IMG/VR virus record: IMGVR_UViG_3300009149_000025
Coordinates: 5,825 to 69,824 of that record
Source of the DNA: a virus
Length of the DNA stretch: 64,000 nucleotides
Reading direction: 5' to 3' (one strand)
The notes below the pieces were generated by a model. That model had not been told where the DNA came from and ran no database searches. It saw nothing but the letters and a program-made list of their open reading frames with translations. Of this stretch, positions 13,081-53,541 are shown in pieces (the stretch's first letter is position 1; the number at the start of each line of letters is the position of its first letter). A program made the position numbers and the translations under genes.

Positions 13081-16000
13081 ATGGCAGTAGATAGAGAATT
13101 TGTAGAAAAATTAGATGCTTTTACCGAAGCATTAGGTGATGTCGTAAAAATCCTTAAATCGGATATAGATAAAAACAATACTGATACTATAGATAAGGCT
13201 ATGGATAGTATGCCTGATAAAATTATTCAAATATCTGAAGATTTAACATCAATTAAGAAAGATATGAAAAGTTTAATATCATCAACAGGTGATATTAAAA
13301 AATCTATTGATGAAATCAAAAAAAGTAAGGAAACTGGGGTTTTTGGTAAAATATCTAATTCAGATAATAAGAAAAAAATTGTAGATGGTATATCTGTTAT
13401 TGGTATGATAGCTGGTGGGGTGTTAGCTATGGGGTTAGCATTTAAGTTGATAGGCAAAGTAGATTTTTTATCTGTAATAGCTTTATCTGCTGGTATGGTA
13501 GCAATGTCATATTCTTTCGTTATGATAACTAAGTCAATGAAAGACAATAAGTTAAAATCTGGAGATATTATGATGACTTCTGCTATTTTACCCATAATGG
13601 CATTGGGGTTATTGGGTTCTGGGATGATAATGTCAAAGATGCCAACAATTGGATTAATGGAAGGTATTTCTATATTGGTTGTATCAATTGCTATGGGTGC
13701 GTCATTGTTTTTTATGACTAAGGCGTTGAAAGAATCTAAAATGAAGGGTAAACACACTTCACAATTTTTATTATTACCAATTATTTTACCAGCTATAGCT
13801 CTTGGTTTGTTGGGTTCTGGGATGATATTATCAAAGATGCCAGTAATTGGATTAATGCAAAGTGTTTCGATATTAGTAGTATCGATAGCTATGGGTGCTT
13901 CGTTGTTTTTTATGTCTAAGGCTTTAAAAGAATCCAAAATGGAAGGTAAACATACATCACAATTTTTGTTATTACCAATAATATTACCAGCGATAGCTTT
14001 GGGTATAGTTGCATCATCATGGGTATTGCAATTAGTAAATGGAAATATAGATTTATTGGATGTTTTAAAAGCATCTTTGGCTGTTGGGATATCTGTGTTG
14101 GTTATGATGCCTACTATTTTATTAATTAATAAGTTCAAAGTAAGTACAAAAGACATTATAAAGGGAGGATTTTCGATACTTACTTTATCTGGTATTGTGG
14201 CATTATCATCTATGGTATTATCAAAAGGTGATTATAGTGGTAATGTACCAGATTATCAATGGAGTTTAAAAGTTGGGTTATCTATGGTGGTATTTGGTGG
14301 TTCAGCAGTTTTACTTGGATTATTATCTAAGAATGCTTTGATACAAGGTATGATAGCTATGGCATTACTTGTTCCTACTATATGGTTAGCTGATTGGATA
14401 ATAAGTAAGGGAGATTATAGTAAATATCCATCTACTGATTGGTCGTTGGGTGTTGGGTTAAGTATGTTGATATTTGGTGCGGCTACTGCGGCTTTAGGTT
14501 TTATTGCGATTAGTGGATTAGGTGCTGGTGCGTTAGCATTAGGTTTAATTGCGGTTATTGGGATAGCTGCATTGATGGTGGAAGTAGATAAATTATTATC
14601 CCCTAGAGGTTGGAATAAATTTCCAAAACTTGATTGGTCAAAAGGTGTGGGTCAAGCGTTATTGGTTTTTGGTACTGCTACTGTGGTTTTAGGTGCATTT
14701 GCACTTGCTACATTTGGATTTGGTGTGTCCGCTGGATTATCCGCTGTTAATGATATTGCTCAAACAATGGTTGATGTTGATAAAAAATTATCAGAAGGTA
14801 ATTGGGGATCATTTCCACCTATGAAGTGGAGTGAATCGGTTGGTTTATCACTTATGAGTTTTACAAAGGCGATTGCTAATAATTCACCTGGTTTGTTGGA
14901 TAAATTTGGGGATTGGTTATTTGGAACAAGTCAAGGTGAAAATCCATTATTATCTGTTGCAAAATCAATGAAATCTGTTGCAGAAGAATTAAATTGGGAA
15001 GGTTGGGCAAATGCTAAGTATCCAGATGTTAAATGGGCAGCTGGCGTCGGTGCGTCGTTAATAGCTTTTTCAGCGATGGAAGTTGGTGCTGGGGTAGGAA
15101 AAGCAATTAGTGGTTTATTGAGTAAAATAGGTGGTGGTTCAGGTAGTCCTTTAGAAGATTTAGCAGGAAGTATGGTAGCTATTGCTAAAAAAATGAATGA
15201 CCCAATTTGGGATAAAGTCAATAAATCTGGTGGATACCCATCGGAAGAATGGGCAACTGGTGTTAGTATGGCATTGGGTGCTTTTTCAAATATAATGAAC
15301 ACATTAGATGATATTGGTGTTGATAATGATGAATTTGGAGAAGAAGCAATTTTGATTATATCTGGATTAAAACGAGTTGCTATTTATATGAATCAAGATT
15401 GGGGAAAACCTAATGACGATATAAATAAATGGGCTGAAGGGTTATATTTAGTTGTTGAAAATCTTGTAAAAACATTGAATTACATAGATGATGCGACATA
15501 CGAAGCAGATGATAGAATAGGTTTAGTTAGTATGTTTAATAGTATGTCATTAGTAAATGAAAAATTAAATGTATCATGGAATGATTTACCAAGTGACTGG
15601 TCTAAAAATTTATTCCCAATAGTTCAGAATCTTGTAAAATCTTTAGATTATATTGACGCGGCAACATACGATGCAGATGATAGAATAGGTTTAGTTAGTA
15701 TGTTTGAAAGTGTAAGATTAGTAAATGAAGAATTAAAGATATCAAAATGGAATAGTTTACCAATTGCTTGGTCTAAAGATATATTTCCAATAGTTAAAAA
15801 TTTAGTAAAATCTTTAGATTTTATTGATATGGCGACTTATGATACATTTGATAGAACAAGTTTAGTTAATTTATTTTCTACTATAAATGATATTAATGAA
15901 ACACTTGGTGAAAATAATAAATGGAACACAATTGATGGTGATTGGTTATCATCAATGAAATTGGTGGTAGACACTATTCTATCTATATCTCCTGAATTAT

Positions 16001-16491
16001 TATCTAATACAAATGATATAGTTAAATCATTTGAAAAATTATCAGAAATAAGTGATGCTTCGGATAATTTTAAAGTGTTGGCTGATTCAATCAAGTACGT
16101 TGCAGAAGCTTTAAAAGATGTTAATACAGATGTATTGGACAATTTATCTAAGTTTTCAGGGAGTATGTTGGTGTTGTCATTGGTTGATGAATCAAAATTA
16201 AACGAATTTATAGATGTTATTGATGATAGAAAAGATGTTTTAAAGGATATAATATCACTTGGTCAAATGGGTGAAGGTGGATATGAAAATATCAAGTCTA
16301 CGACTACACAAATTATTACTAAAACAGATAAAGAAGAACAAAAACAAAGAGAAGAAAAATTTAATGAATTAATAACAGAAATAAAATCATTAAAACAAGT
16401 ATTATTATCAATTGATGGAAATACAGATTTATCTAAAACTATAAATTCACCAAATAGATTAAAAACATTTGTTCCAGATTCATTACAATAA
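13081..16491 (+). CDS. tape-measure-like protein
   Basis: 1136 aa, helical, Ala/Gly/Leu-rich hydrophobic repeats with periodic Trp; 66-aa internal duplication. Confidence 0.55.
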   Translation: MAVDREFVEKLDAFTEALGDVVKILKSDIDKNNTDTIDKAMDSMPDKIIQISEDLTSIKKDMKSLISSTGDIKKSIDEIKKSKETGVFGKISNSDNKKKIVDGISVIGMIAGGVLAMGLAFKLIGKVDFLSVIALSAGMVAMSYSFVMITKSMKDNKLKSGDIMMTSAILPIMALGLLGSGMIMSKMPTIGLMEGISILVVSIAMGASLFFMTKALKESKMKGKHTSQFLLLPIILPAIALGLLGSGMILSKMPVIGLMQSVSILVVSIAMGASLFFMSKALKESKMEGKHTSQFLLLPIILPAIALGIVASSWVLQLVNGNIDLLDVLKASLAVGISVLVMMPTILLINKFKVSTKDIIKGGFSILTLSGIVALSSMVLSKGDYSGNVPDYQWSLKVGLSMVVFGGSAVLLGLLSKNALIQGMIAMALLVPTIWLADWIISKGDYSKYPSTDWSLGVGLSMLIFGAATAALGFIAISGLGAGALALGLIAVIGIAALMVEVDKLLSPRGWNKFPKLDWSKGVGQALLVFGTATVVLGAFALATFGFGVSAGLSAVNDIAQTMVDVDKKLSEGNWGSFPPMKWSESVGLSLMSFTKAIANNSPGLLDKFGDWLFGTSQGENPLLSVAKSMKSVAEELNWEGWANAKYPDVKWAAGVGASLIAFSAMEVGAGVGKAISGLLSKIGGGSGSPLEDLAGSMVAIAKKMNDPIWDKVNKSGGYPSEEWATGVSMALGAFSNIMNTLDDIGVDNDEFGEEAILIISGLKRVAIYMNQDWGKPNDDINKWAEGLYLVVENLVKTLNYIDDATYEADDRIGLVSMFNSMSLVNEKLNVSWNDLPSDWSKNLFPIVQNLVKSLDYIDAATYDADDRIGLVSMFESVRLVNEELKISKWNSLPIAWSKDIFPIVKNLVKSLDFIDMATYDTFDRTSLVNLFSTINDINETLGENNKWNTIDGDWLSSMKLVVDTILSISPELLSNTNDIVKSFEKLSEISDASDNFKVLADSIKYVAEALKDVNTDVLDNLSKFSGSMLVLSLVDESKLNEFIDVIDDRKDVLKDIISLGQMGEGGYENIKSTTTQIITKTDKEEQKQREEKFNELITEIKSLKQVLLSIDGNTDLSKTINSPNRLKTFVPDSLQ

Positions 16492-17516: not shown

Positions 17517-17735
17517 ATGAGTATAGAAATATTGAATGAATATAACAATTACCGACTAGATGAGTTTGTGATGTGTAAGAAAAGTATTGGTAGCTGGAAT
17601 GAAGGTTCTACCTATAAAATTACTGAAATCAAAAAATTGATAAATCGTGAACGACATGTGGAAGTAAGAATTTCATTAGAAGGTGTCTATTGTGGTAATA
17701 TGAATGAAGAATATTTTTATTCACTAAAAAAGTAA
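17517..17735 (+). CDS. hypothetical protein
   Basis: 72 aa ORF within a co-directional run. Confidence 0.5.
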   Translation: MSIEILNEYNNYRLDEFVMCKKSIGSWNEGSTYKITEIKKLINRERHVEVRISLEGVYCGNMNEEYFYSLKK

Positions 17736-17751
17736 AAAATAATAATTAATT

Positions 17752-18621
17752 ATGAATAAAGATGGAATTTCTGCAGAAGAAATGAAAGAATTGGTAATTG
17801 AGGATTCACAAGGCGAATTTGATATTGATAATACAGATTATGAAATTACAACATCTGATGATGTTTTTGATTTTGATTTTGATTCTGATAAAGAATTCGA
17901 TATCGAAACTGCATTCGATTTTGTTAAACATTCTTCTAAACCTAAAGAAACTAAGGAATTAGTAGAAAAAAAGGAAGCTGATAATGTTGTTAAATCAACG
18001 GCAGAAACATTTCTAAGTCCAGAATATGTAGAATTGATGGATAATGGATATGCTAAGTTACTTGCAATTTTGAAAAAATATGAGGTGAATTCAGATTATG
18101 TTAAAAGTATGTCAGAAGCTGATAAAGATAAAATCTATATCATTGCTGAACATCTTTTTAACGAATATCAAAAGAATTTGAATAAAATGGATTTCAATTT
18201 TGAATTAACTCAAGATGAATGGAAATTCATGATAGATGTTCTAAAACATAAATTAGAATATGATCAGAATGAAATTTTTCAAATGGAAGAAGTTAGGAAA
18301 GAATATTTAGATGGAGCAGAAGAAATTCAAAAATCTATGCCGAAAGATGTAGAAGAAATTCCAACTATCATTAATGTTAATAACATAATCATTCTTTACC
18401 ACTTAATTTCTAAGTATAAAGTGAAAGGTATAAATAAACAACATTATGCATTCCTAACACTTTTAACTAAAATTGGTGAAAGAATTAAACTATTTAATGC
18501 TTATACTGTATGGGTTCAACGTTTAAGTGAAGATTTCCAATTATGGGGTGGAAGCTTATCAGTTGATGATAGTGTGGTAAATGGTAGTGTAATTCAACCA
18601 GAAAATCCTACTGATGGATAA
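17752..18621 (+). CDS. hypothetical protein
   Basis: 289 aa; acidic N-terminus. Confidence 0.65.
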   Translation: MNKDGISAEEMKELVIEDSQGEFDIDNTDYEITTSDDVFDFDFDSDKEFDIETAFDFVKHSSKPKETKELVEKKEADNVVKSTAETFLSPEYVELMDNGYAKLLAILKKYEVNSDYVKSMSEADKDKIYIIAEHLFNEYQKNLNKMDFNFELTQDEWKFMIDVLKHKLEYDQNEIFQMEEVRKEYLDGAEEIQKSMPKDVEEIPTIINVNNIIILYHLISKYKVKGINKQHYAFLTLLTKIGERIKLFNAYTVWVQRLSEDFQLWGGSLSVDDSVVNGSVIQPENPTDG

Positions 18622-18809
18622 TGAACAATATTGATTCATATGTTTCAATAATTGATGAATTGAAAAGGGTGTATTGGAACGGAAGAACTCATACACCTTT
18701 TCTTTTACCAATTGAAATGAAAATTTGTGCTCAATCAATTGGATTAGAATTGGTAAGTGTAAAACCAATGAAATCACCTAATTATAAAATAAATTACAAC
18801 TATGGATAA
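18621..18809 (+). CDS. hypothetical protein; C-terminus weakly resembles a gp23-type capsid segment
   Basis: AQSIGLELVSVKPMKSP; start overlaps the previous stop. Confidence 0.45.
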   Translation: MNNIDSYVSIIDELKRVYWNGRTHTPFLLPIEMKICAQSIGLELVSVKPMKSPNYKINYNYG

Positions 18810-19314
18810 TGAAAAAGTAAAAGAAATTCCTTATATGGATAAATCATATAATGAAAAAAGAAAAATTTTAAGAAGACAACATTTTATATCAAAAGATATT
18901 TTTGAATTAACAAACCAAGTGTTATACAAAGTTCTTAAAAAAATTAAACCTAATAAATTTGTAGATTATAAAGAAGTAATAAAACATATACTTGTTGATG
19001 GGTATGTTGCATATGAAAAAATTTACGATGATAATGATAAAGTAATAGCATTAAATCCAATTGATCCGATATCATTGGTATTATCAGTGGAAAAAGATGG
19101 ACAAATTTTGTGGCATCAAAACAAAGGAACACCTTTTGCAAGAATTTTATACGATTCACAGGTATTGTATGTTAAATCTGGATTAGAATCGTATACATCT
19201 TTAGTCGAATTATGTTATATAAAAATGATAGATAAGGATAGTAAATATTCTTTGAAATATTGTGTAGATAGTGTGGTTGATTCTTATAATGAAAGTTTTT
19301 TAAAAATAAAATAA
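18802..19314 (+). CDS. truncated portal-protein (T4 gp20-like) paralog
   Basis: HILVDGYVAYEKIYD...IALNPIDPISL...WHQ...RILYDSQVLYV resembles the gp20 segment WYVDGRIFFHKIID...LRxLDP; only 170 aa. Confidence 0.55.
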   Translation: MDNEKVKEIPYMDKSYNEKRKILRRQHFISKDIFELTNQVLYKVLKKIKPNKFVDYKEVIKHILVDGYVAYEKIYDDNDKVIALNPIDPISLVLSVEKDGQILWHQNKGTPFARILYDSQVLYVKSGLESYTSLVELCYIKMIDKDSKYSLKYCVDSVVDSYNESFLKIK

Positions 19315-19322
19315 AATAAAAT

Positions 19323-20024
19323 ATGAAAGATGAAGACAATTTTCCATTTGATGAATGGGATGATGAAGAATTTGAAGAAACAAATGAAAATTTAGAATTT
19401 ATTTGTAAGAGAGAAATACCTACACCAGTTTGTAGTATTATGTATGTGGATTTTCGTTATAATGAACCACAAGAAGAAACTATTGTAGATTTAGATAACC
19501 CTTTAACAAGAGAAAACGAAACTATGGGTCAAGTAATAGTACCTGAAGTTTTTAGTAAAAATGTTGAATTGAGTGAAGATTTTATTTCGGAAGATGATGT
19601 AAAAGAAAAAGCTATAGAAAAAATCATAGAATTATCTGAAAGGAATTTTAATGGTAATAATGCTGAATTATATGAAAAATTTAAATTTAAATTTTCAGAT
19701 TTTCCAGAAAATACTAGTAGAAAGTTAATGTCAAAAATATTTACTGGTAGTAGTGCAATTGCAGTTAATGGTAGAATTGGTCCTGCTCAATATATGATAA
19801 TTTCTGAGGAAATTTATAACGAACATGGATTATCTGATATATCTGGAACAATTACACCGATTTTTTACGATACTAAAGATATATATCTTTTTAGAAAAAA
19901 TACTATGGATCAACCAGGTTTAGTTTATATAACAAATAATGATAAATATTCCTTAGTGGATATTGGATTTTATCCAGAAAAACAATTTTTAAAAATAAAA
20001 TTAGAAAGAGAAAATGAAGAGTAA
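19323..20024 (+). CDS. truncated major-capsid-protein (T4 gp23-like) paralog
   Basis: PTPVCSIMYVDFRY, RKLMSKIFTGSSAIAVNGRIGPAQYMIIS and IYLFRKNTMDQPGLVY follow gp23 motifs in order; only 233 aa. Confidence 0.5.
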   Translation: MKDEDNFPFDEWDDEEFEETNENLEFICKREIPTPVCSIMYVDFRYNEPQEETIVDLDNPLTRENETMGQVIVPEVFSKNVELSEDFISEDDVKEKAIEKIIELSERNFNGNNAELYEKFKFKFSDFPENTSRKLMSKIFTGSSAIAVNGRIGPAQYMIISEEIYNEHGLSDISGTITPIFYDTKDIYLFRKNTMDQPGLVYITNNDKYSLVDIGFYPEKQFLKIKLERENEE

Positions 20025-20496
20025 AATTTATGTTAAATTACACAACAAAAATTGCGAATTGGTTTCATTCGGTAATTGGATTGATTTAAGATCATCTGAA
20101 ACAGTGTCGCTTAAAAAATTTGAATTTAAATTAATAGATTTAGGTGTTTCTATGAAATTACCAAAATATTTTCAAGGAAATATTGTACCAAGATCAGGTA
20201 CTTATAAAAATTTCAAACTTATACAAACAAACCATTATGGTGTAGTCGATGGACTAACAAAAACTGAATCTGGGTATTCTGGTAATGATGATAAATGGAA
20301 ATTTGCAGCATTGTCAATGGATGATACTATTATCAATGAGGGTGATAGAATTTGTCAATTTGAAATTAAACCAACAATGTTTGCACCATTTTTAGTAAAA
20401 CTTAAATGGTTATTTTCAAATGGAATTAAAATTATTTATGTTGATGAATTAAATTCCAATAATAGGGGTGGTTTTGGAACTACAGGAAAAAAGTGA
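20014..20496 (+). CDS. dut: trimeric dUTPase
   Basis: IDL, PRSG, GVVD...YSG, GDRICQ and RGGFGTTG motifs. Confidence 0.92.
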   Translation: MKSKIYVKLHNKNCELVSFGNWIDLRSSETVSLKKFEFKLIDLGVSMKLPKYFQGNIVPRSGTYKNFKLIQTNHYGVVDGLTKTESGYSGNDDKWKFAALSMDDTIINEGDRICQFEIKPTMFAPFLVKLKWLFSNGIKIIYVDELNSNNRGGFGTTGKK

Positions 20497-20497
20497 G

Positions 20498-20523
20498 AAA
20501 GGGTGGTTTTAACCACCTTTTTT
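20498..20523 (+). terminator. intrinsic terminator
   Basis: GGTGGTT-TT-AACCACC hairpin followed by a T run, directly after dut. Confidence 0.75.
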
Positions 20524-23717: not shown

Positions 23718-24236
23718 TTATTTTTTAGGGTTAATCGTAACCGACATTCTTTTATTTTCTAATTTTGGCATAGATTCTATCTTACCATATTCTTTTAATG
23801 CGTCTACAAAACGAAGAATAAGTAATTCACCTTGATCTGCAAATTGTATTTCTCTTCCATGAAACCACACAGTAGTTTTCACTTTATCGCCTTTTTCTAA
23901 AAAATTAATAGCGTGTTTCAATTTGAAATTAAAATCATGATCACCCGTATTATAAGTAAAACGAATTTCTTTTACTTTAGTTTTCTTTTGACTTTTCTTA
24001 TTTTCTCTTTCCTTTTGTTTCTTTTCATAAATGAATTTTTGAAATTCAATTATTTTACAAACAGGTGGATTTGCATTTGGTACAATTTCCACGAGGTCTA
24101 ATTTCATATCAGTGGCAATTTTCAAAGCTTCTGATATGTCAACAATTTGACTTTCGATATCTTTACCAGTTATTCTAACTTTTGGTGATTTGATTTTTTC
24201 ATTGACTCTGAAAAAATTCTTATTTGTTTTTATCAT
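23718..24236 (-). CDS. infC: translation initiation factor IF-3
   Basis: RVNEKI, LDLVEIVPNANPPVCKI, KEIRF, HDFNFK, GDKVK, FHGRE. Confidence 0.95.
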   Translation of the reverse strand: MIKTNKNFFRVNEKIKSPKVRITGKDIESQIVDISEALKIATDMKLDLVEIVPNANPPVCKIIEFQKFIYEKKQKERENKKSQKKTKVKEIRFTYNTGDHDFNFKLKHAINFLEKGDKVKTTVWFHGREIQFADQGELLILRFVDALKEYGKIESMPKLENKRMSVTINPKK

Positions 24237-32771: not shown

Positions 32772-34970
32772 TTATTGTTTTTTGTACCAATTATCTATAT
32801 TTTTTATACCTAAGTTATAAGTTCTACTATTAGATAATTTTAAATTTCCATCATCATCAATTTTAGCTCCTTTGTTATAAATTCTTTTGTAAGAATCACT
32901 TAATATGCTTATTGTTCCATTATCTCTTTTATCTGAATAATCAAAAATTAATGGTTTATAATCATCTGGTAATCCATTTTCGATATAGTCTTCAATCGAT
33001 TCTTTGTAATGTGGGTGTCCAAATACCGATGTTAGGTTTACTAAGCTCATCACCATATCATCATGTCCTGATTGTGATTTATATGTTACATCCCCAGATG
33101 GTGTTTCTTTTTTGGCAAATGATTTTAATTCTATTATATTGGAATCATTACTAAGAGATAAATTATCTTTTATCATATTATCTTGAAACTCTTTTATGTT
33201 ATATTTTTTATCTCTACCTATTAATAGTCCTTTTTTAACTATTTTATCTTTTTGATTGTGTTTAAATCTCAAGAAAACATAATCACCATAATCGTTTTCG
33301 CCTTCAAAAACATATGGCATAGATTGGAAAAGTAGATTTCCTAAATTTTTATTCATTTCAACTACACATTTAACTTTTTCAGGATCAAAGAATTCAAATA
33401 CCAACATGTAAAGAATATGGGCAAGTTCACTTATTTTATAAATATTTGATCTCCATAAACCTATTTGTTCCAATTTAAAGAAATCGTAAAGATTGTGTAT
33501 GGATTCTTTGTTATTTTCAATCCATTCTTTATCTTTTGGTAATAATCTAAATATATTTATAACACTATAATCTAATCCTAATCCTTCTGCTAAATCTATA
33601 CCAATAAAGATATGATAATTTTTTTGATTACCCATTTCAAATATTTCTGGACTATCGTTTACAAAATGTAAATTGTTATAAGGGATTGGTAATTTTCTGC
33701 TAAAATTATCGATTTCGATATGTTCATATTTTTTAATATTTTTAGTCATTTGTTGGAATTTAACAGTGTCAAATAGTGTTTTATCGTCTGTTAAAAATTC
33801 TAATCCAAATTCCTGTTTGAAGAAACTTTCACCACCAATAAGTTTTGTTTGTTCTTCTTCCCATGTGCTGATTTTACACAATTCTGCTAATGGAATTTTT
33901 TTACCATCATTCATAGGAATCATAAGTTTTCTAATATCGGTAACTCCTGCTTTTGGATATGGTATAGTTTCTTTTTCGTCTTTATAAAATTTGATGAATA
34001 TTGTAACATCACTATTTACAGTTTCTTCATATAATTTATACCCTAAAGATTTTAAATAATTTTTAATAAATGTTCCTGTTATTCCATATTGTGAATATTT
34101 TCTAATTTTGGTTTTATTTAATAATATTTTAGTATCTCTTCGTCCATTTTTTTCATACCAATATACTCTCATAGGTTTATATCCATTGTTATCATCATCA
34201 TCTTCTGGTTTTTCGGCACCTGTTATTAATTCCCAAAATAAGTTAAATCCATCAGGTGTTGATGATATAATAATTTTAGAATCGTTAATGGACGACACAA
34301 CAGGAACAACTTCAGCATAATATTTCCTTATTATTGTATCAGGTACTTTGGCAAATTCATCAAGATATAGTAAATCAATTGTAAAACCGATAGCTGGTTC
34401 AGCTGTTCTTGCTTCTGTTTGAATTCTTGAACCATTTTCAAGTGCAATTGCACTTTCATTCCAGTTCGTAACTCCCTCTTTTAAGAAAAATGGTAAAAGC
34501 TTGTAAATCCCTTTTATTTTGTTTATAATTTCCTTTGTGGTTTTAGATTTATTTGCAACAATCATTACACCCTTATTACTATGAAATAAAACAAACCATA
34601 AAATATAGATGGCTGCCGATACAGTTTTACCAGTTTGACGACTTGCCATTAAAATGGAATATCTATTATCGTTAAATAATTTTATTATTTCTTTTTGATA
34701 TCTTCTTAATTTTATTTCACCAATTGTACCATCTTCTCTTTTAATTTTACAATATTTTTGGGCGAAATAAAAAACACTTAATTTACATTTAATATATTCT
34801 TCTCTTTCAGCCTTAGTCATAGCAAATGAAATTCCACCTTTTCTAACTCCCCTATTTCTACTGTGCCATAGAATTTCGGTTCTTTTTAATTTAAGAGCAT
34901 ATTTTTCTTTCTGTTGGATTTCATCTACCTTTTTGGTAGTCATTACATTACTTTCTTGGTTATCAGCCAT
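32772..34970 (-). CDS. terL: terminase large subunit (T4 gp17-like)
   Basis: LRRYQ, SRQTGKT (Walker A), LLYLDEFA (Walker B), SSTPDG, GIDLAEGLGLDYS, HDDMVMS. Confidence 0.95.
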   Translation of the reverse strand: MADNQESNVMTTKKVDEIQQKEKYALKLKRTEILWHSRNRGVRKGGISFAMTKAEREEYIKCKLSVFYFAQKYCKIKREDGTIGEIKLRRYQKEIIKLFNDNRYSILMASRQTGKTVSAAIYILWFVLFHSNKGVMIVANKSKTTKEIINKIKGIYKLLPFFLKEGVTNWNESAIALENGSRIQTEARTAEPAIGFTIDLLYLDEFAKVPDTIIRKYYAEVVPVVSSINDSKIIISSTPDGFNLFWELITGAEKPEDDDDNNGYKPMRVYWYEKNGRRDTKILLNKTKIRKYSQYGITGTFIKNYLKSLGYKLYEETVNSDVTIFIKFYKDEKETIPYPKAGVTDIRKLMIPMNDGKKIPLAELCKISTWEEEQTKLIGGESFFKQEFGLEFLTDDKTLFDTVKFQQMTKNIKKYEHIEIDNFSRKLPIPYNNLHFVNDSPEIFEMGNQKNYHIFIGIDLAEGLGLDYSVINIFRLLPKDKEWIENNKESIHNLYDFFKLEQIGLWRSNIYKISELAHILYMLVFEFFDPEKVKCVVEMNKNLGNLLFQSMPYVFEGENDYGDYVFLRFKHNQKDKIVKKGLLIGRDKKYNIKEFQDNMIKDNLSLSNDSNIIELKSFAKKETPSGDVTYKSQSGHDDMVMSLVNLTSVFGHPHYKESIEDYIENGLPDDYKPLIFDYSDKRDNGTISILSDSYKRIYNKGAKIDDDGNLKLSNSRTYNLGIKNIDNWYKKQ

Positions 34971-52437: not shown

Positions 52438-53541
52438 ATGAAGGCGGTAATTGGATTAGGATTCGGTGATGAAGGTAAAGGTTTAGTTACTAATTATTTA
52501 GAAGGATCATTGGTGATTAGATATTCAGGTGGACAACAAGCTGGACACAATGTTGTTTTGAAAGATGGTAAAAGCCATATCTTTTCAAACTTCGGTTCAG
52601 GTACTTTGAAAGGTATACCAACATATTGGTCAAAATTTTGTACAGTTGATCCAGTTGGTATGATGAATGAACTAAATGATTTATTGGAAAATGGGTTCAA
52701 TCCCGTTTTGTATATCGATGGTGATTCTCCAATTACCACTCCATATGATAAGTATCACAATAGTAATAATGTAGCTGATTTAAATCATGGTACATGTGGT
52801 GTCGGTGTCGGTTCTACATTTAATAGAGAAGAACATTTTTACCATTTAACATTCAGTGATATCTTTAATTCGTGGATATTAGATACTAAATTAAATAATA
52901 TTGCTAAATATTATGGATATTTGTCTCATGAATTAATAGAACAAGTTGAAGAATTTTTAATTATGTGTGATGAAATGGTCAAAAGTGGAAATTTTCATTT
53001 AGTTTATGGTATTCCAGATGGTTTTGATGAAGATGGATATGTTTTTGAAGGTTCACAAGGGTTGTTATTAGACCAACACTATGGATTTTTCCCACATGTT
53101 ACAAGATGTAATGTAGGAACAACAAATATTTTAGAAATGGTTACTGATAAATCTTTCGAATTATTCTTGGTGACAAGAGCTTATCAAACAAGACATGGTA
53201 ATGGTCCAATGACTAATGATAATATAGATTTTGATGTAAATAACCCAAATGAAACAAATGTAGATAATGAATATCAAGGTAAATTTAGAAAATCAATTCT
53301 TGATGTATCATTGTTAGAATATGGTATAAATAAAGATAAGTATATTAGAGAAAATCCTAAAAATTTAGTAATTACTTGTCTGGATCAAGTTGATGAATAT
53401 ACATTTACATATGATGGGTTGATGGTTTTATGTGATGATGAAGATGAATTTGTTAAAAGAATTTCAGATATTCTAAATATAGATAGTGTGTATATAAGTA
53501 AATCAAACGTTAGTGAAAATATAAAAAAATGGAATAAATAA
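52438..53541 (+). CDS. purA: adenylosuccinate synthetase-like protein
   Basis: GLGFGDEGKG, QAGHNV, HGTCGVGVG, FEGSQGLLLD, FPHVT, TRHGNGP. Confidence 0.8.
   Translation: MKAVIGLGFGDEGKGLVTNYLEGSLVIRYSGGQQAGHNVVLKDGKSHIFSNFGSGTLKGIPTYWSKFCTVDPVGMMNELNDLLENGFNPVLYIDGDSPITTPYDKYHNSNNVADLNHGTCGVGVGSTFNREEHFYHLTFSDIFNSWILDTKLNNIAKYYGYLSHELIEQVEEFLIMCDEMVKSGNFHLVYGIPDGFDEDGYVFEGSQGLLLDQHYGFFPHVTRCNVGTTNILEMVTDKSFELFLVTRAYQTRHGNGPMTNDNIDFDVNNPNETNVDNEYQGKFRKSILDVSLLEYGINKDKYIRENPKNLVITCLDQVDEYTFTYDGLMVLCDDEDEFVKRISDILNIDSVYISKSNVSENIKKWNK

Follow-up and report, generated by a model that had tools for sequence, protein, structure and literature searches.

A miniature capsid paralogue and a wing-only portal paralogue encoded beside a dUTPase gene as candidate soluble mimics of phage head proteins

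Why would a phage carry short versions of a major capsid protein and a portal protein next to a gene of nucleotide metabolism? The question is raised by a 64,000-nucleotide stretch of viral DNA (hereafter the window), which comprises bases 5825-69824 of the 69,824-base IMG/VR virus record IMGVR_UViG_3300009149_000025 and in which three small open reading frames (ORFs), o62, o170 and o233, lie directly upstream of a dUTPase gene. A first-pass annotation of the window, made from its letters, had described the three as fragments of the phage's own capsid and portal proteins, which might act as a decoy module for bacterial immunity. All three ORFs are present on the plus strand (Table 1), and we find that o233 is a deletion derivative of a T4-type capsid protein, that o170 is the wing domain of a portal protein, that both are held under selection, and that o62 is weakly supported as a gene. 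The products of these genes should be unable to form a shell or a channel, and we tentatively read them as soluble self-mimics that act in conflict.

To place o233, we built a profile from 40 distinct full-length capsid proteins (544-610 amino acids, aa) of related huge phages. This profile matched o233 with an E value of 6e-19 in collinear blocks, pairing o233 residues 24-51 with profile positions 103-130, 61-101 with 299-340, 131-175 with 417-459, 170-203 with 482-516 and 208-228 with 541-561; positions 1-102 and 131-298 have no counterpart, so that the N-arm and the insertion domain are gone. The likeness to gp23 noticed earlier is therefore upheld by the profile, while the length, put at half of normal, is about 40% of that of the lineage's capsid protein. 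The acidic leader, also noticed earlier, is 23 residues long, conserved in the closest relatives and disordered in the AlphaFold model (predicted local distance difference test, pLDDT, 79.0; predicted template modelling score, pTM, 0.73), whose disordered parts are residues 1-21 and the tip of the E-loop.

Comparisons of the model with known structures, for which we used VIA-align (Z scores) and Foldseek, bore out the expected HK97-type, gp23-like identity. The best-matching fold was that of T4 gp23 (Z 14.8, 199 aligned residues, root-mean-square deviation 4.8 Å), with model residues 21-229 lying on gp23 106-520 and the model beginning at gp23 ~103-107 in VIA-align; HK97 gp5 (Z 12.2), Myxococcus xanthus encapsulin EncA (Z 12.0) and T4 gp24 (Z 11.9) followed. 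Foldseek ranks 1-50 were capsid or encapsulin chains plus one 'phage-related protein', and the BFVD matches listed include a 297-aa 'head vertex protein' of Vibrio phage nt-1. As modelled, o233 is the HK97 core with A and P domains and E-loop, beginning at the strand that precedes the E-loop and continuing as far as the C-terminus; it is of T4-type capsid origin, with the N-arm replaced by an acidic tail and the insertion domain deleted.

Direct profiles do not reach this far. Pfam Gp23 (PF07068) matched o233 below its gathering threshold (E 0.17, 11.7 bits against a cut-off of 24.4) and gave weak matches in three of 14 members of the mini capsid family (best E 0.044). A search of PDB sequences with the mini-family profile returned no capsid match, its best hit being an unrelated protein (E 0.089), the alignment profile A1 had no direct reach to T4 gp23 or gp24, and a search of the ESM Atlas gave no usable match. 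The link from o233 to gp23 runs through the long capsid proteins of the lineage and through structure. Measured against a T4-type capsid protein, o233 has the HK97 fold but falls below the Pfam threshold, lacks the N-arm, the insertion and the length of 520-610 aa, and lies outside a head module.

The adjacent o170 proved to be related to portal proteins. Its residues 7-124 match residues ~80-250 of 17 portal ORFs (431-608 aa) at ~30% identity and with E values down to 4e-15, and these 17 ORFs sit ~4.5 kb upstream of long capsid genes, the position of the portal in a T4-like head module. The PHROG portal family phrog_12 matched at E 4.7e-4, and Pfam Phage_portal (PF04860) stayed below threshold (E 0.076, 12.6 bits; cut-off 39.1). 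For the AlphaFold model of o170 (pLDDT 89.7, pTM 0.83), the matches listed by Foldseek and VIA-align were only portal, connector or neck entries; T4 gp20 aligned at Z 9.2-9.9 over 145-156 residues, with model residues 14/18-170 spanning gp20 70/74-422. The domain limits of gp20, in the available text of its structural description (PMC4493910), are 70-254 and 378-450 for the wing, 255-278 and 359-377 for the stem, 279-358 for the clip and 451-524 for the crown. In its sequence, o170 extends from the conserved N-terminal motif of portals up to the onset of the stem helix; compared with full portals, one stretch of 36 residues is deleted and one of 17 is inserted. Thus, o170 is the portal wing domain alone, from which stem, clip and crown have been excised; it has the wing fold of a portal protein and neither the remaining domains nor a Pfam score above threshold. 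Going by the sequence alignment, its final helix would be the homologue of the first part of the stem, and going by the model, this helix would take the place of the later wing helix. Four homologues (165-169 aa) share 54-65% identity with it. Both o170 and o233 end in an FLKIK-like sequence, which in o233 is the capsid protein's own last strand (profile 541-561) and in o170 aligns with the portal NQLK motif; we treat this common ending as coincidence. Inspection by eye of the C-termini encoded in the window revealed no tag common to its ORFs.

In o62, the capsid likeness is confined to the second half of the ORF. Residues 28-58 match capsid-profile positions 89-119 (E 3e-8), with 60-77% identity to long capsid proteins over 26-30 aa; Pfam Gp23 scored E 0.21 and 11.4 bits, below the same cut-off of 24.4. 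The segment is the capsid's most conserved N-terminal stretch, of which o62 matches 18 of 26 consensus positions, and comprises a helix, a strand and the start of the E-loop, joining the N-arm to the core; a weak alignment places it at about T4 gp23 95-121. The first-pass annotation had taken the end of o62 for the part of gp23 just before the first motif of o233. The resemblance to gp23 holds and the position does not: in an alignment with ten capsid proteins, the last ~18 residues of o62 and residues 25-42 of o233 are the same capsid segment, and most mini-family members begin at that segment without any upstream piece. As both cover the same segment, they do not represent the two parts of a split gene. 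We had considered a gene split by an intron, the two ORFs being in the same reading frame, and rejected it on account of this overlap and the lack of an intron; an Rfam intron search over the 64 kb gave no hit at gathering score and only chance-level hits in 18000-20500.

The same capsid segment also has a local resemblance to the N-terminal domain of the IF3 homologue encoded further downstream (Table 1). This domain shares 18 of 56 positions with residues 81-132 of one capsid protein (L030:4966-6600; pairwise E 0.002), and a PDB search with that capsid segment found the N-domain of IF3 as its sole match (E 0.44). The resemblance probably reflects a common helix-strand-hairpin pattern or chance.

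Two metagenome contigs that are nearly identical to each other, L069 and L071, keep the whole arrangement, in which the flanking genes are better conserved than the trio. Amino-acid identities to the window are 82% (o163), 86% (o142), 84% (o289) and 80% (o192) for the flanks, as against 53-58% for o62, 65% for o170 and 57-59% for o233. We estimated the ratio of non-synonymous to synonymous substitution rates (dN/dS) by the Nei-Gojobori method against L071 with codon bootstraps. In the flanks it is 0.10 (o163), 0.12 (o142), 0.18 (o289), 0.14 (o113) and 0.15 (o192), rising to 0.30 for o170 (95% confidence interval, CI, 0.18-0.47) and 0.47 for o233 (95% CI 0.32-0.70), with none of 1000 bootstraps at or above 1 for either gene. 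In neutral simulations at the observed synonymous divergence, none of 3000 runs kept o170 or o233 open. Hence, o170 and o233 are clearly maintained, under purifying selection that is relaxed, and they change faster than the flanking genes. For o62, the value of 0.87 (95% CI 0.44-1.90) is statistically indistinguishable from neutral, and 2.6% of the simulations kept it open. Its homologues have 57 aa (L071) and 39 aa (P0021), the latter without the capsid-like half, so that conservation is clear for two of the three genes. The thirteen homologues of o233 have 181-277 aa.

The trio also fills a variable slot. In LR756501, a record of a 735,411-bp uncultured phage, the homologue of o289 (49% identity) precedes an unrelated 107-aa ORF, after which comes a dUTPase gene, whereas L071 has the trio at this place, with its o233 homologue overlapping the dUTPase start by 11 nucleotides (nt), as in the window; the position between the two conserved genes is thus occupied differently in different relatives. 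The gene after the slot is itself of differing kinds, as a separate observation: the window has a divergent 160-aa dUTPase, LR756501 a canonical one of 147 aa, and L071 a canonical one that is interrupted by an intein-like insert (Table 1), whose 300-aa ORF reads, by eye, as an endonuclease. BLAST detected no similarity between the dUTPases of the window and of L071.

We went on to examine how widely the two paralogues occur. A pattern scan of IMG/VR with the o233 family yielded 67 loci, whose matching ORFs are long in 46 cases (544-609 aa), short in 19 (193-321 aa) and partial long forms in two (one split, one at a contig end). The long ORFs are T4-type capsid proteins, that of L030 matching T4 gp23 at E 5e-8 in a PDB sequence search. 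Against 1.84 billion representatives, the mini-family profile found 507 at E ≤0.001, 263 at ≤1e-10 and 55 at ≤1e-30; among the best 150 of the 507, 144 are under 350 aa. Five records were searched whole. Four of them, of which three are complete and one is 80% complete, combine a single long capsid gene, near the portal gene (~4.5 kb in relatives), with a single distant mini copy of 193-239 aa; these are G001 (640 kb, with terminal repeats), G002 (676 kb), G003 (323 kb) and G004 (243 kb). The fifth, G005 (71% complete), has a single capsid form of 321-329 aa together with a 295-aa wing-type portal paralogue.

In LR756501, a 342-aa wing-type portal paralogue scores better on the mini-portal profile than the phage's real portal does. 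Its gene overlaps the end of a thymidine kinase gene; at a distance of 2.5 kb are two capsid-fragment ORFs, one of 101 and one of 78 aa, which match capsid-profile positions 418-444 and 502-551. The window and LR756501 thus provide two independent instances of a wing-type portal paralogue in the vicinity of capsid-derived mini-genes. Other small ORFs carrying the capsid N-terminal segment are found in G001 (94 aa), G002 (104 aa), L043 (111 aa) and L053-L055 (162-165 aa). Two further kinds of capsid-like sequence were seen in passing: at ~517 kb of LR756501, a capsid-like core is embedded in a 479-aa ORF, and scattered small ORFs of G001 and G002 (frames of 102-282 aa) contain stretches of 30-45 residues that are 33-58% identical to residues 45-111 and 436-480 of the phage's own capsid protein (Table 1).

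A contrast between G001 and G002 reveals how differently capsid and mini capsid evolve. The capsid proteins of these two phages are 93.75% identical over 544 aa, whereas their mini copies align over 32 aa only, at 37.5% identity. Their 14-kb mini-capsid neighbourhoods have no gene in common at E 1e-5, and BLAST found no conserved neighbour of the mini capsid gene across G001-G004. The mini capsid family changes far more quickly than the real capsid protein, in the manner of conflict genes.

We then took a census of the genes around 17 mini-capsid loci, with a limit of four genes per side and after removal of duplicate loci. None of the 130 neighbouring proteins was a portal, prohead protease, terminase, sheath or tube protein, and two were assigned to head or tail functions, one being a 66-aa capsid fragment and the other a coiled-coil match of 'tape measure'-like type. 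The named neighbours include ribonucleotide reductase, thymidylate synthase, deoxynucleoside monophosphate (dNMP) kinase, DNA and other methyltransferases, a helicase and glycosyltransferases. In seven loci (L017, L044, L058, L059, L060, L064 and L065), at ~4.2-6.0 kb within each, a member of a remote branch of this family has a ~250-aa 'galactosyl transferase' (phrog_1721) encoded upstream; the two genes are adjacent except in L017, where an HNH gene separates them. Four more loci have other glycosyltransferases nearby, and the mini capsid may have a functional connection with glycosylation.

In the window, o62, o170 and o233 form a translationally coupled set that is closely joined to o289 and the dUTPase gene, with a 1-nt overlap between o289 and o62, an 8-nt overlap between o62 and o170 and an 8-nt gap between o170 and o233. 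A terminator-like hairpin follows the dUTPase gene and, going by its match to a consensus, would close an operon of these five genes; such consensus sites number four in 9.5 kb, where 1.8 are expected. The trio is probably co-transcribed with the dUTPase gene, apart from the late head genes, which agrees with the earlier suggestion that these genes are expressed separately from morphogenesis genes.

What might such proteins do? The published text available for T4 (PMC4493910, PMC7136217) describes the wing as the main contact between portal and capsid, proposes that it captures gp23 to start the head, and, from an in-situ structure, has the N-terminal region of the portal and two wing loops grip gp23, including Met98 of the N-arm and P-domain residues. 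Seen against this, o233 and o170, along with the segment in o62, would present the two sides of the portal-capsid contact in free form and could bind whatever normally reads the capsid or portal protein. The reader would most likely be a host sensor, which the copies would decoy or block; a less likely target would be the assembly machinery of a competing phage. As reported in the accessible part of a recent preprint (bioRxiv 10.64898/2026.01.04.697583), the targets are the portal for Avs4 and Avs11, the HK97 fold for Avs7, Avs8 and Avs10, and short capsid motifs for Lit and CapRel. Since o170 and o233 show relaxed purifying selection, drift independent of the capsid, non-late placement and loss of the polymerising parts, we infer that the products are soluble mimics in conflict, most likely an immune decoy or blocker. 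This is the reading that we prefer, and we hold it with reserve: the analysis shows where the proteins come from, how they fold, which domains they keep, and how their genes are conserved, selected and placed, and from these we infer solubility, timing, binding partner and effect. Fast evolution and placement in a variable accessory region, both expected of an anti-defence mimic, are found here. A narrower proposal, that the genes make early, soluble replicas of the portal-capsid nucleation contact, in the form of a bare HK97 core, a portal wing and short capsid-segment peptides, that blind or pre-empt Avs-, CapRel- or Lit-type immunity directed at late head proteins, and so form a previously undescribed class in huge phages, is more doubtful.

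Several points weigh against an immune decoy. Its main weakness is that Avs-type sensors fire on binding, so that a faithful mimic would have to bind without activating. No published phage-encoded capsid or portal decoy was found in our literature searches. The near-neutral rate of o62 and its shortened homologue suggest that this ORF may be decaying. No mini-portal was found in G001-G004, where we found only full portals of 599-605 aa; as these four relatives keep the mini capsid, the two proteins need not work together. Finally, glycosyltransferases lie near distant family members in 11 of the 17 loci and could point to a different role, although the counts are not independent, seven of the 11 being one syntenic group. 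The decoy module proposed in the first-pass annotation thus gains from the descent, conservation, placement and fast evolution of the genes, and the decoy role itself is the leading hypothesis among several.

Roles in the head itself have to be weighed alongside it. The mini capsid might be a pentameric vertex protein, analogous to gp24, or a minor shell component, with the mini-portal as a minor head protein: it is the sole sizeable capsid paralogue found in the three complete genomes and the 80%-complete one, T4 also builds its vertices from a smaller capsid paralogue (gp24 with 427 aa, gp23 with 521 aa), and both the gp24 fold match and the 'head vertex protein' of phage nt-1 fit. A penton protein must, however, fit a hexamer lattice that is nearly unchanged between G001 and G002, so that the drift of the mini copies, which do not co-evolve with the capsid, argues against such a role, as do the absence of head genes beside it in all 17 loci, the missing N-arm and a dN/dS well above the 0.10-0.18 of the flanks; we regard a structural role as improbable. 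Somewhat better placed, if still unlikely, is self-regulation, in which the two proteins bind the phage's own capsid, portal or scaffold and thereby hold back or restrict the nucleation of heads whose capsid is very large. The genes do copy surfaces that meet at head initiation, and the portal wing of P22 is the scaffold-binding site in the available text of PMC13386823 and PMC9320234. A partner of a 94%-conserved capsid should itself be conserved, though, and the mini copies are not; moreover, four relatives with complete or near-complete genomes lack the mini-portal, and the genes are placed with those of nucleotide metabolism, not with late genes.

Other explanations look beyond the phage's own head. 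Interface copies, fast evolution and a variable-region position would equally suit a weapon against other phages, in which dominant-negative pieces cap or misdirect the head assembly of co-infecting relatives or satellites; since the copies are closest to the lineage's own proteins, such a weapon would risk self-poisoning, and we rate it slightly below self-regulation. The encapsulin-like size and fold of o233, and its recurrence beside genes for dUTPase, dNMP kinase, thymidylate synthase, ribonucleotide reductase, methyltransferases and glycosyltransferases, would be compatible with a shell or platform organising neighbouring enzymes of nucleotide or DNA modification, yet by sequence o233 derives by deletion from a phage capsid and not from an encapsulin, and the neighbouring enzymes vary from locus to locus, which leaves this role as improbable as a structural one. 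Least probable is that the genes are functionless, as remnants of a degraded second head module or as passengers of homing endonucleases. For o62, with its dN/dS near 1 and lengths of 62, 57 and 39 aa in three lineages, this is plausible, and homing endonucleases are frequent nearby (the insert ORF in the L071 dUTPase, a LAGLIDADG gene by the LR756501 capsid fragments), while T4 SegD lies between genes 23 and 24. For o170 and o233 it conflicts with dN/dS values clearly below 1, with the outcome of the neutral simulations, with lengths conserved in four and thirteen homologues respectively, with confident compact folds and, for the mini capsid, with a family of 507 representatives.

Whatever their role, o170 and o233 are new variants of known folds that fall outside the capsid, vertex and portal classes by size, domains, Pfam score and location. 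Searches of the literature, supplements excepted, found no description of mini capsid or wing-only portal paralogues, including in the available text of a jumbo-phage survey (PMC7824862). The findings added here are the wing-only portal and its reappearance in LR756501 and G005, the contrast between G001 and G002, and the neighbour census. Bacteria are now known to rely on capsid and portal proteins as some of their main cues for detecting phages, and phage answers to sensing at the level of the fold are largely open; a large, fast-evolving and selected family of mini capsids would be a concrete, testable candidate for such an answer. Should their role lie outside immune evasion, the genes may instead point to a new level of control over head assembly in the largest phages known. 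Both proteins are small and fold confidently, and could be directly expressed and tested.

Turning to the genomic setting, CheckV puts the completeness of the source contig at 10%, from which we infer a genome of roughly 700 kb. The G+C content of the window is ~25%. Among phage records, DNA similarity was found only to LR756501 and LR756503, the two entries of the 735,411-bp phage, and a protein search with o233 additionally reached LR756502, LR745206 and LR756504 (634-642 kb). The contig encodes a large terminase, IF3, RtcB, several homing endonucleases and genes of nucleotide metabolism. No full capsid or portal gene was found on it; the description of the ORFs as fragments of capsid and portal proteins therefore stands for the lineage, with the phage's own full genes deduced from relatives. 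Scans with PADLOC and NCBIfam gave nothing for o289, o62, o170 or o233, and o289 has no family match in Pfam or PHROG either; o289 was also considered as a possible scaffold homologue, and BLAST gave no match between it and any ORF of the 67 related loci. The dUTPase is recognised by PF00692 (5.6e-7), phrog_135 (3.6e-20) and TIGR00576 (7e-13).

Table 1. Positions of the genes and other features discussed, in the window unless a locus or contig prefix is given.
Feature	Location	Strand	Description
1136-aa ORF	13081-16491	+	many hydrophobic segments, internal repeats; weak tape-measure-like PHROG match only
72-aa ORF	17517-17735	+	between o142 and o289
o289	17752-18621	+	conserved acidic protein; upstream anchor of the variable slot; stop overlaps o62 start (TAATG)
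o62	18621-18809	+	62 aa; conserved 27-aa N-terminal half, then copy of a capsid segment
o170	18802-19314	+	170 aa; wing-only portal paralogue ('mini-portal')
o233	19323-20024	+	233 aa; mini major-capsid paralogue, minimal HK97 fold
dUTPase	20014-20496	+	160 aa; last gene of the unit; start overlaps o233 stop by 11 nt
Terminator-like hairpin	20496-20523	+	12-pair stem with 4 G-C pairs, then a T run; consensus match only
IF3 homologue	23718-24236	-	phrog_9787, 1.2e-46
Large terminase	32772-34970	-	732 aa
367-aa ORF	52438-53541	+	phrog_1211 (adenylosuccinate-synthetase-like), E 6.5e-48
LR756501 cluster	L106:1668-6628 (LR756501 ~141.2-146.1 kb)	+	thymidine kinase, 342-aa wing-type paralogue, 61-aa ORF, M16-type peptidase, LAGLIDADG endonuclease, HAD phosphatase, capsid-fragment ORFs of 101 and 78 aa; tightly packed
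LR756501 capsid-like core	L107:2753-4192		within a 479-aa ORF
LR756501 dUTPase	L104:7907-8350		canonical
L071 dUTPase	L071:9208-11069		canonical; intein-like insert at the GTID/DYRGE motif
Capsid-like stretches, G001	C1:281183-281305; C1:312687-312800		in small ORFs
Capsid-like stretches, G002	C1:258750-258869; C1:224011-224100; C1:504206-504340		in small ORFs

Some features of the wider window deserve mention in their own right. The 72-aa ORF has no counterpart in L071, where o142 and o289 are 17 nt apart. Versions of the 1136-aa protein in relatives, with 1359 and 1411 aa, align to it twice (66.8% and ~30% identity), which suggests a variable number of repeats. In the large terminase, the phrog_2 match spans residues 84-680 but only 361 profile positions, hinting at an insert. 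The 367-aa protein presumably resembles PurZ of phages with 2-aminoadenine DNA.

Comparison with known systems shows where these genes depart from precedent. Both T4 gp24 and o233 are HK97-fold paralogues of a gp23-type major capsid protein, shorter than it and present in addition to its full gene; gp24, however, has 427 aa and is encoded ~0.8 kb downstream of gene 23 in the head module, whereas o233, at 233 aa and without N-arm and insertion domain, sits in a dUTPase operon and belongs to a family that diverges far faster than the capsid. Similarly, o170 reproduces the wing of T4 gp20 (70-254 plus a closing helix) and matches the portals of its own lineage in sequence, but has 170 aa instead of 524-608 and lacks the stem, clip, tunnel loop and crown described in the available text of PMC4493910. 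Lacking stem, clip and crown, it has no channel, no docking site for terminase or neck and probably no 12-mer ring.

For o62, the nearest parallel is Gol, according to the accessible text of PMC3014915 a 29-residue region in the first quarter of gp23 and its most conserved part, which together with EF-Tu activates the Lit protease. In T4, a short piece of this region has biological activity on its own. The capsid part of o62 appears to come from the same conserved N-terminal quarter, although, unlike Gol, o62 evolves near neutrally. Avs4, Avs11, Avs7/8/10, CapRel and Lit are, in the available text of the preprint cited above, readers of exactly the two proteins copied here, with the difference that they are host systems. 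Encapsulins offer a precedent, by similarity of fold, for minimal HK97-fold proteins of similar size used outside the virion, from which o233 differs as a recognisable deletion derivative of its own lineage's capsid protein. SaPI1 CpmB and P4 Sid are small satellite proteins that imitate part of a head-assembly protein, bind the capsid protein and redirect capsid size; unlike the genes of the window, they are encoded by satellites and copy the scaffold rather than the capsid or the portal.

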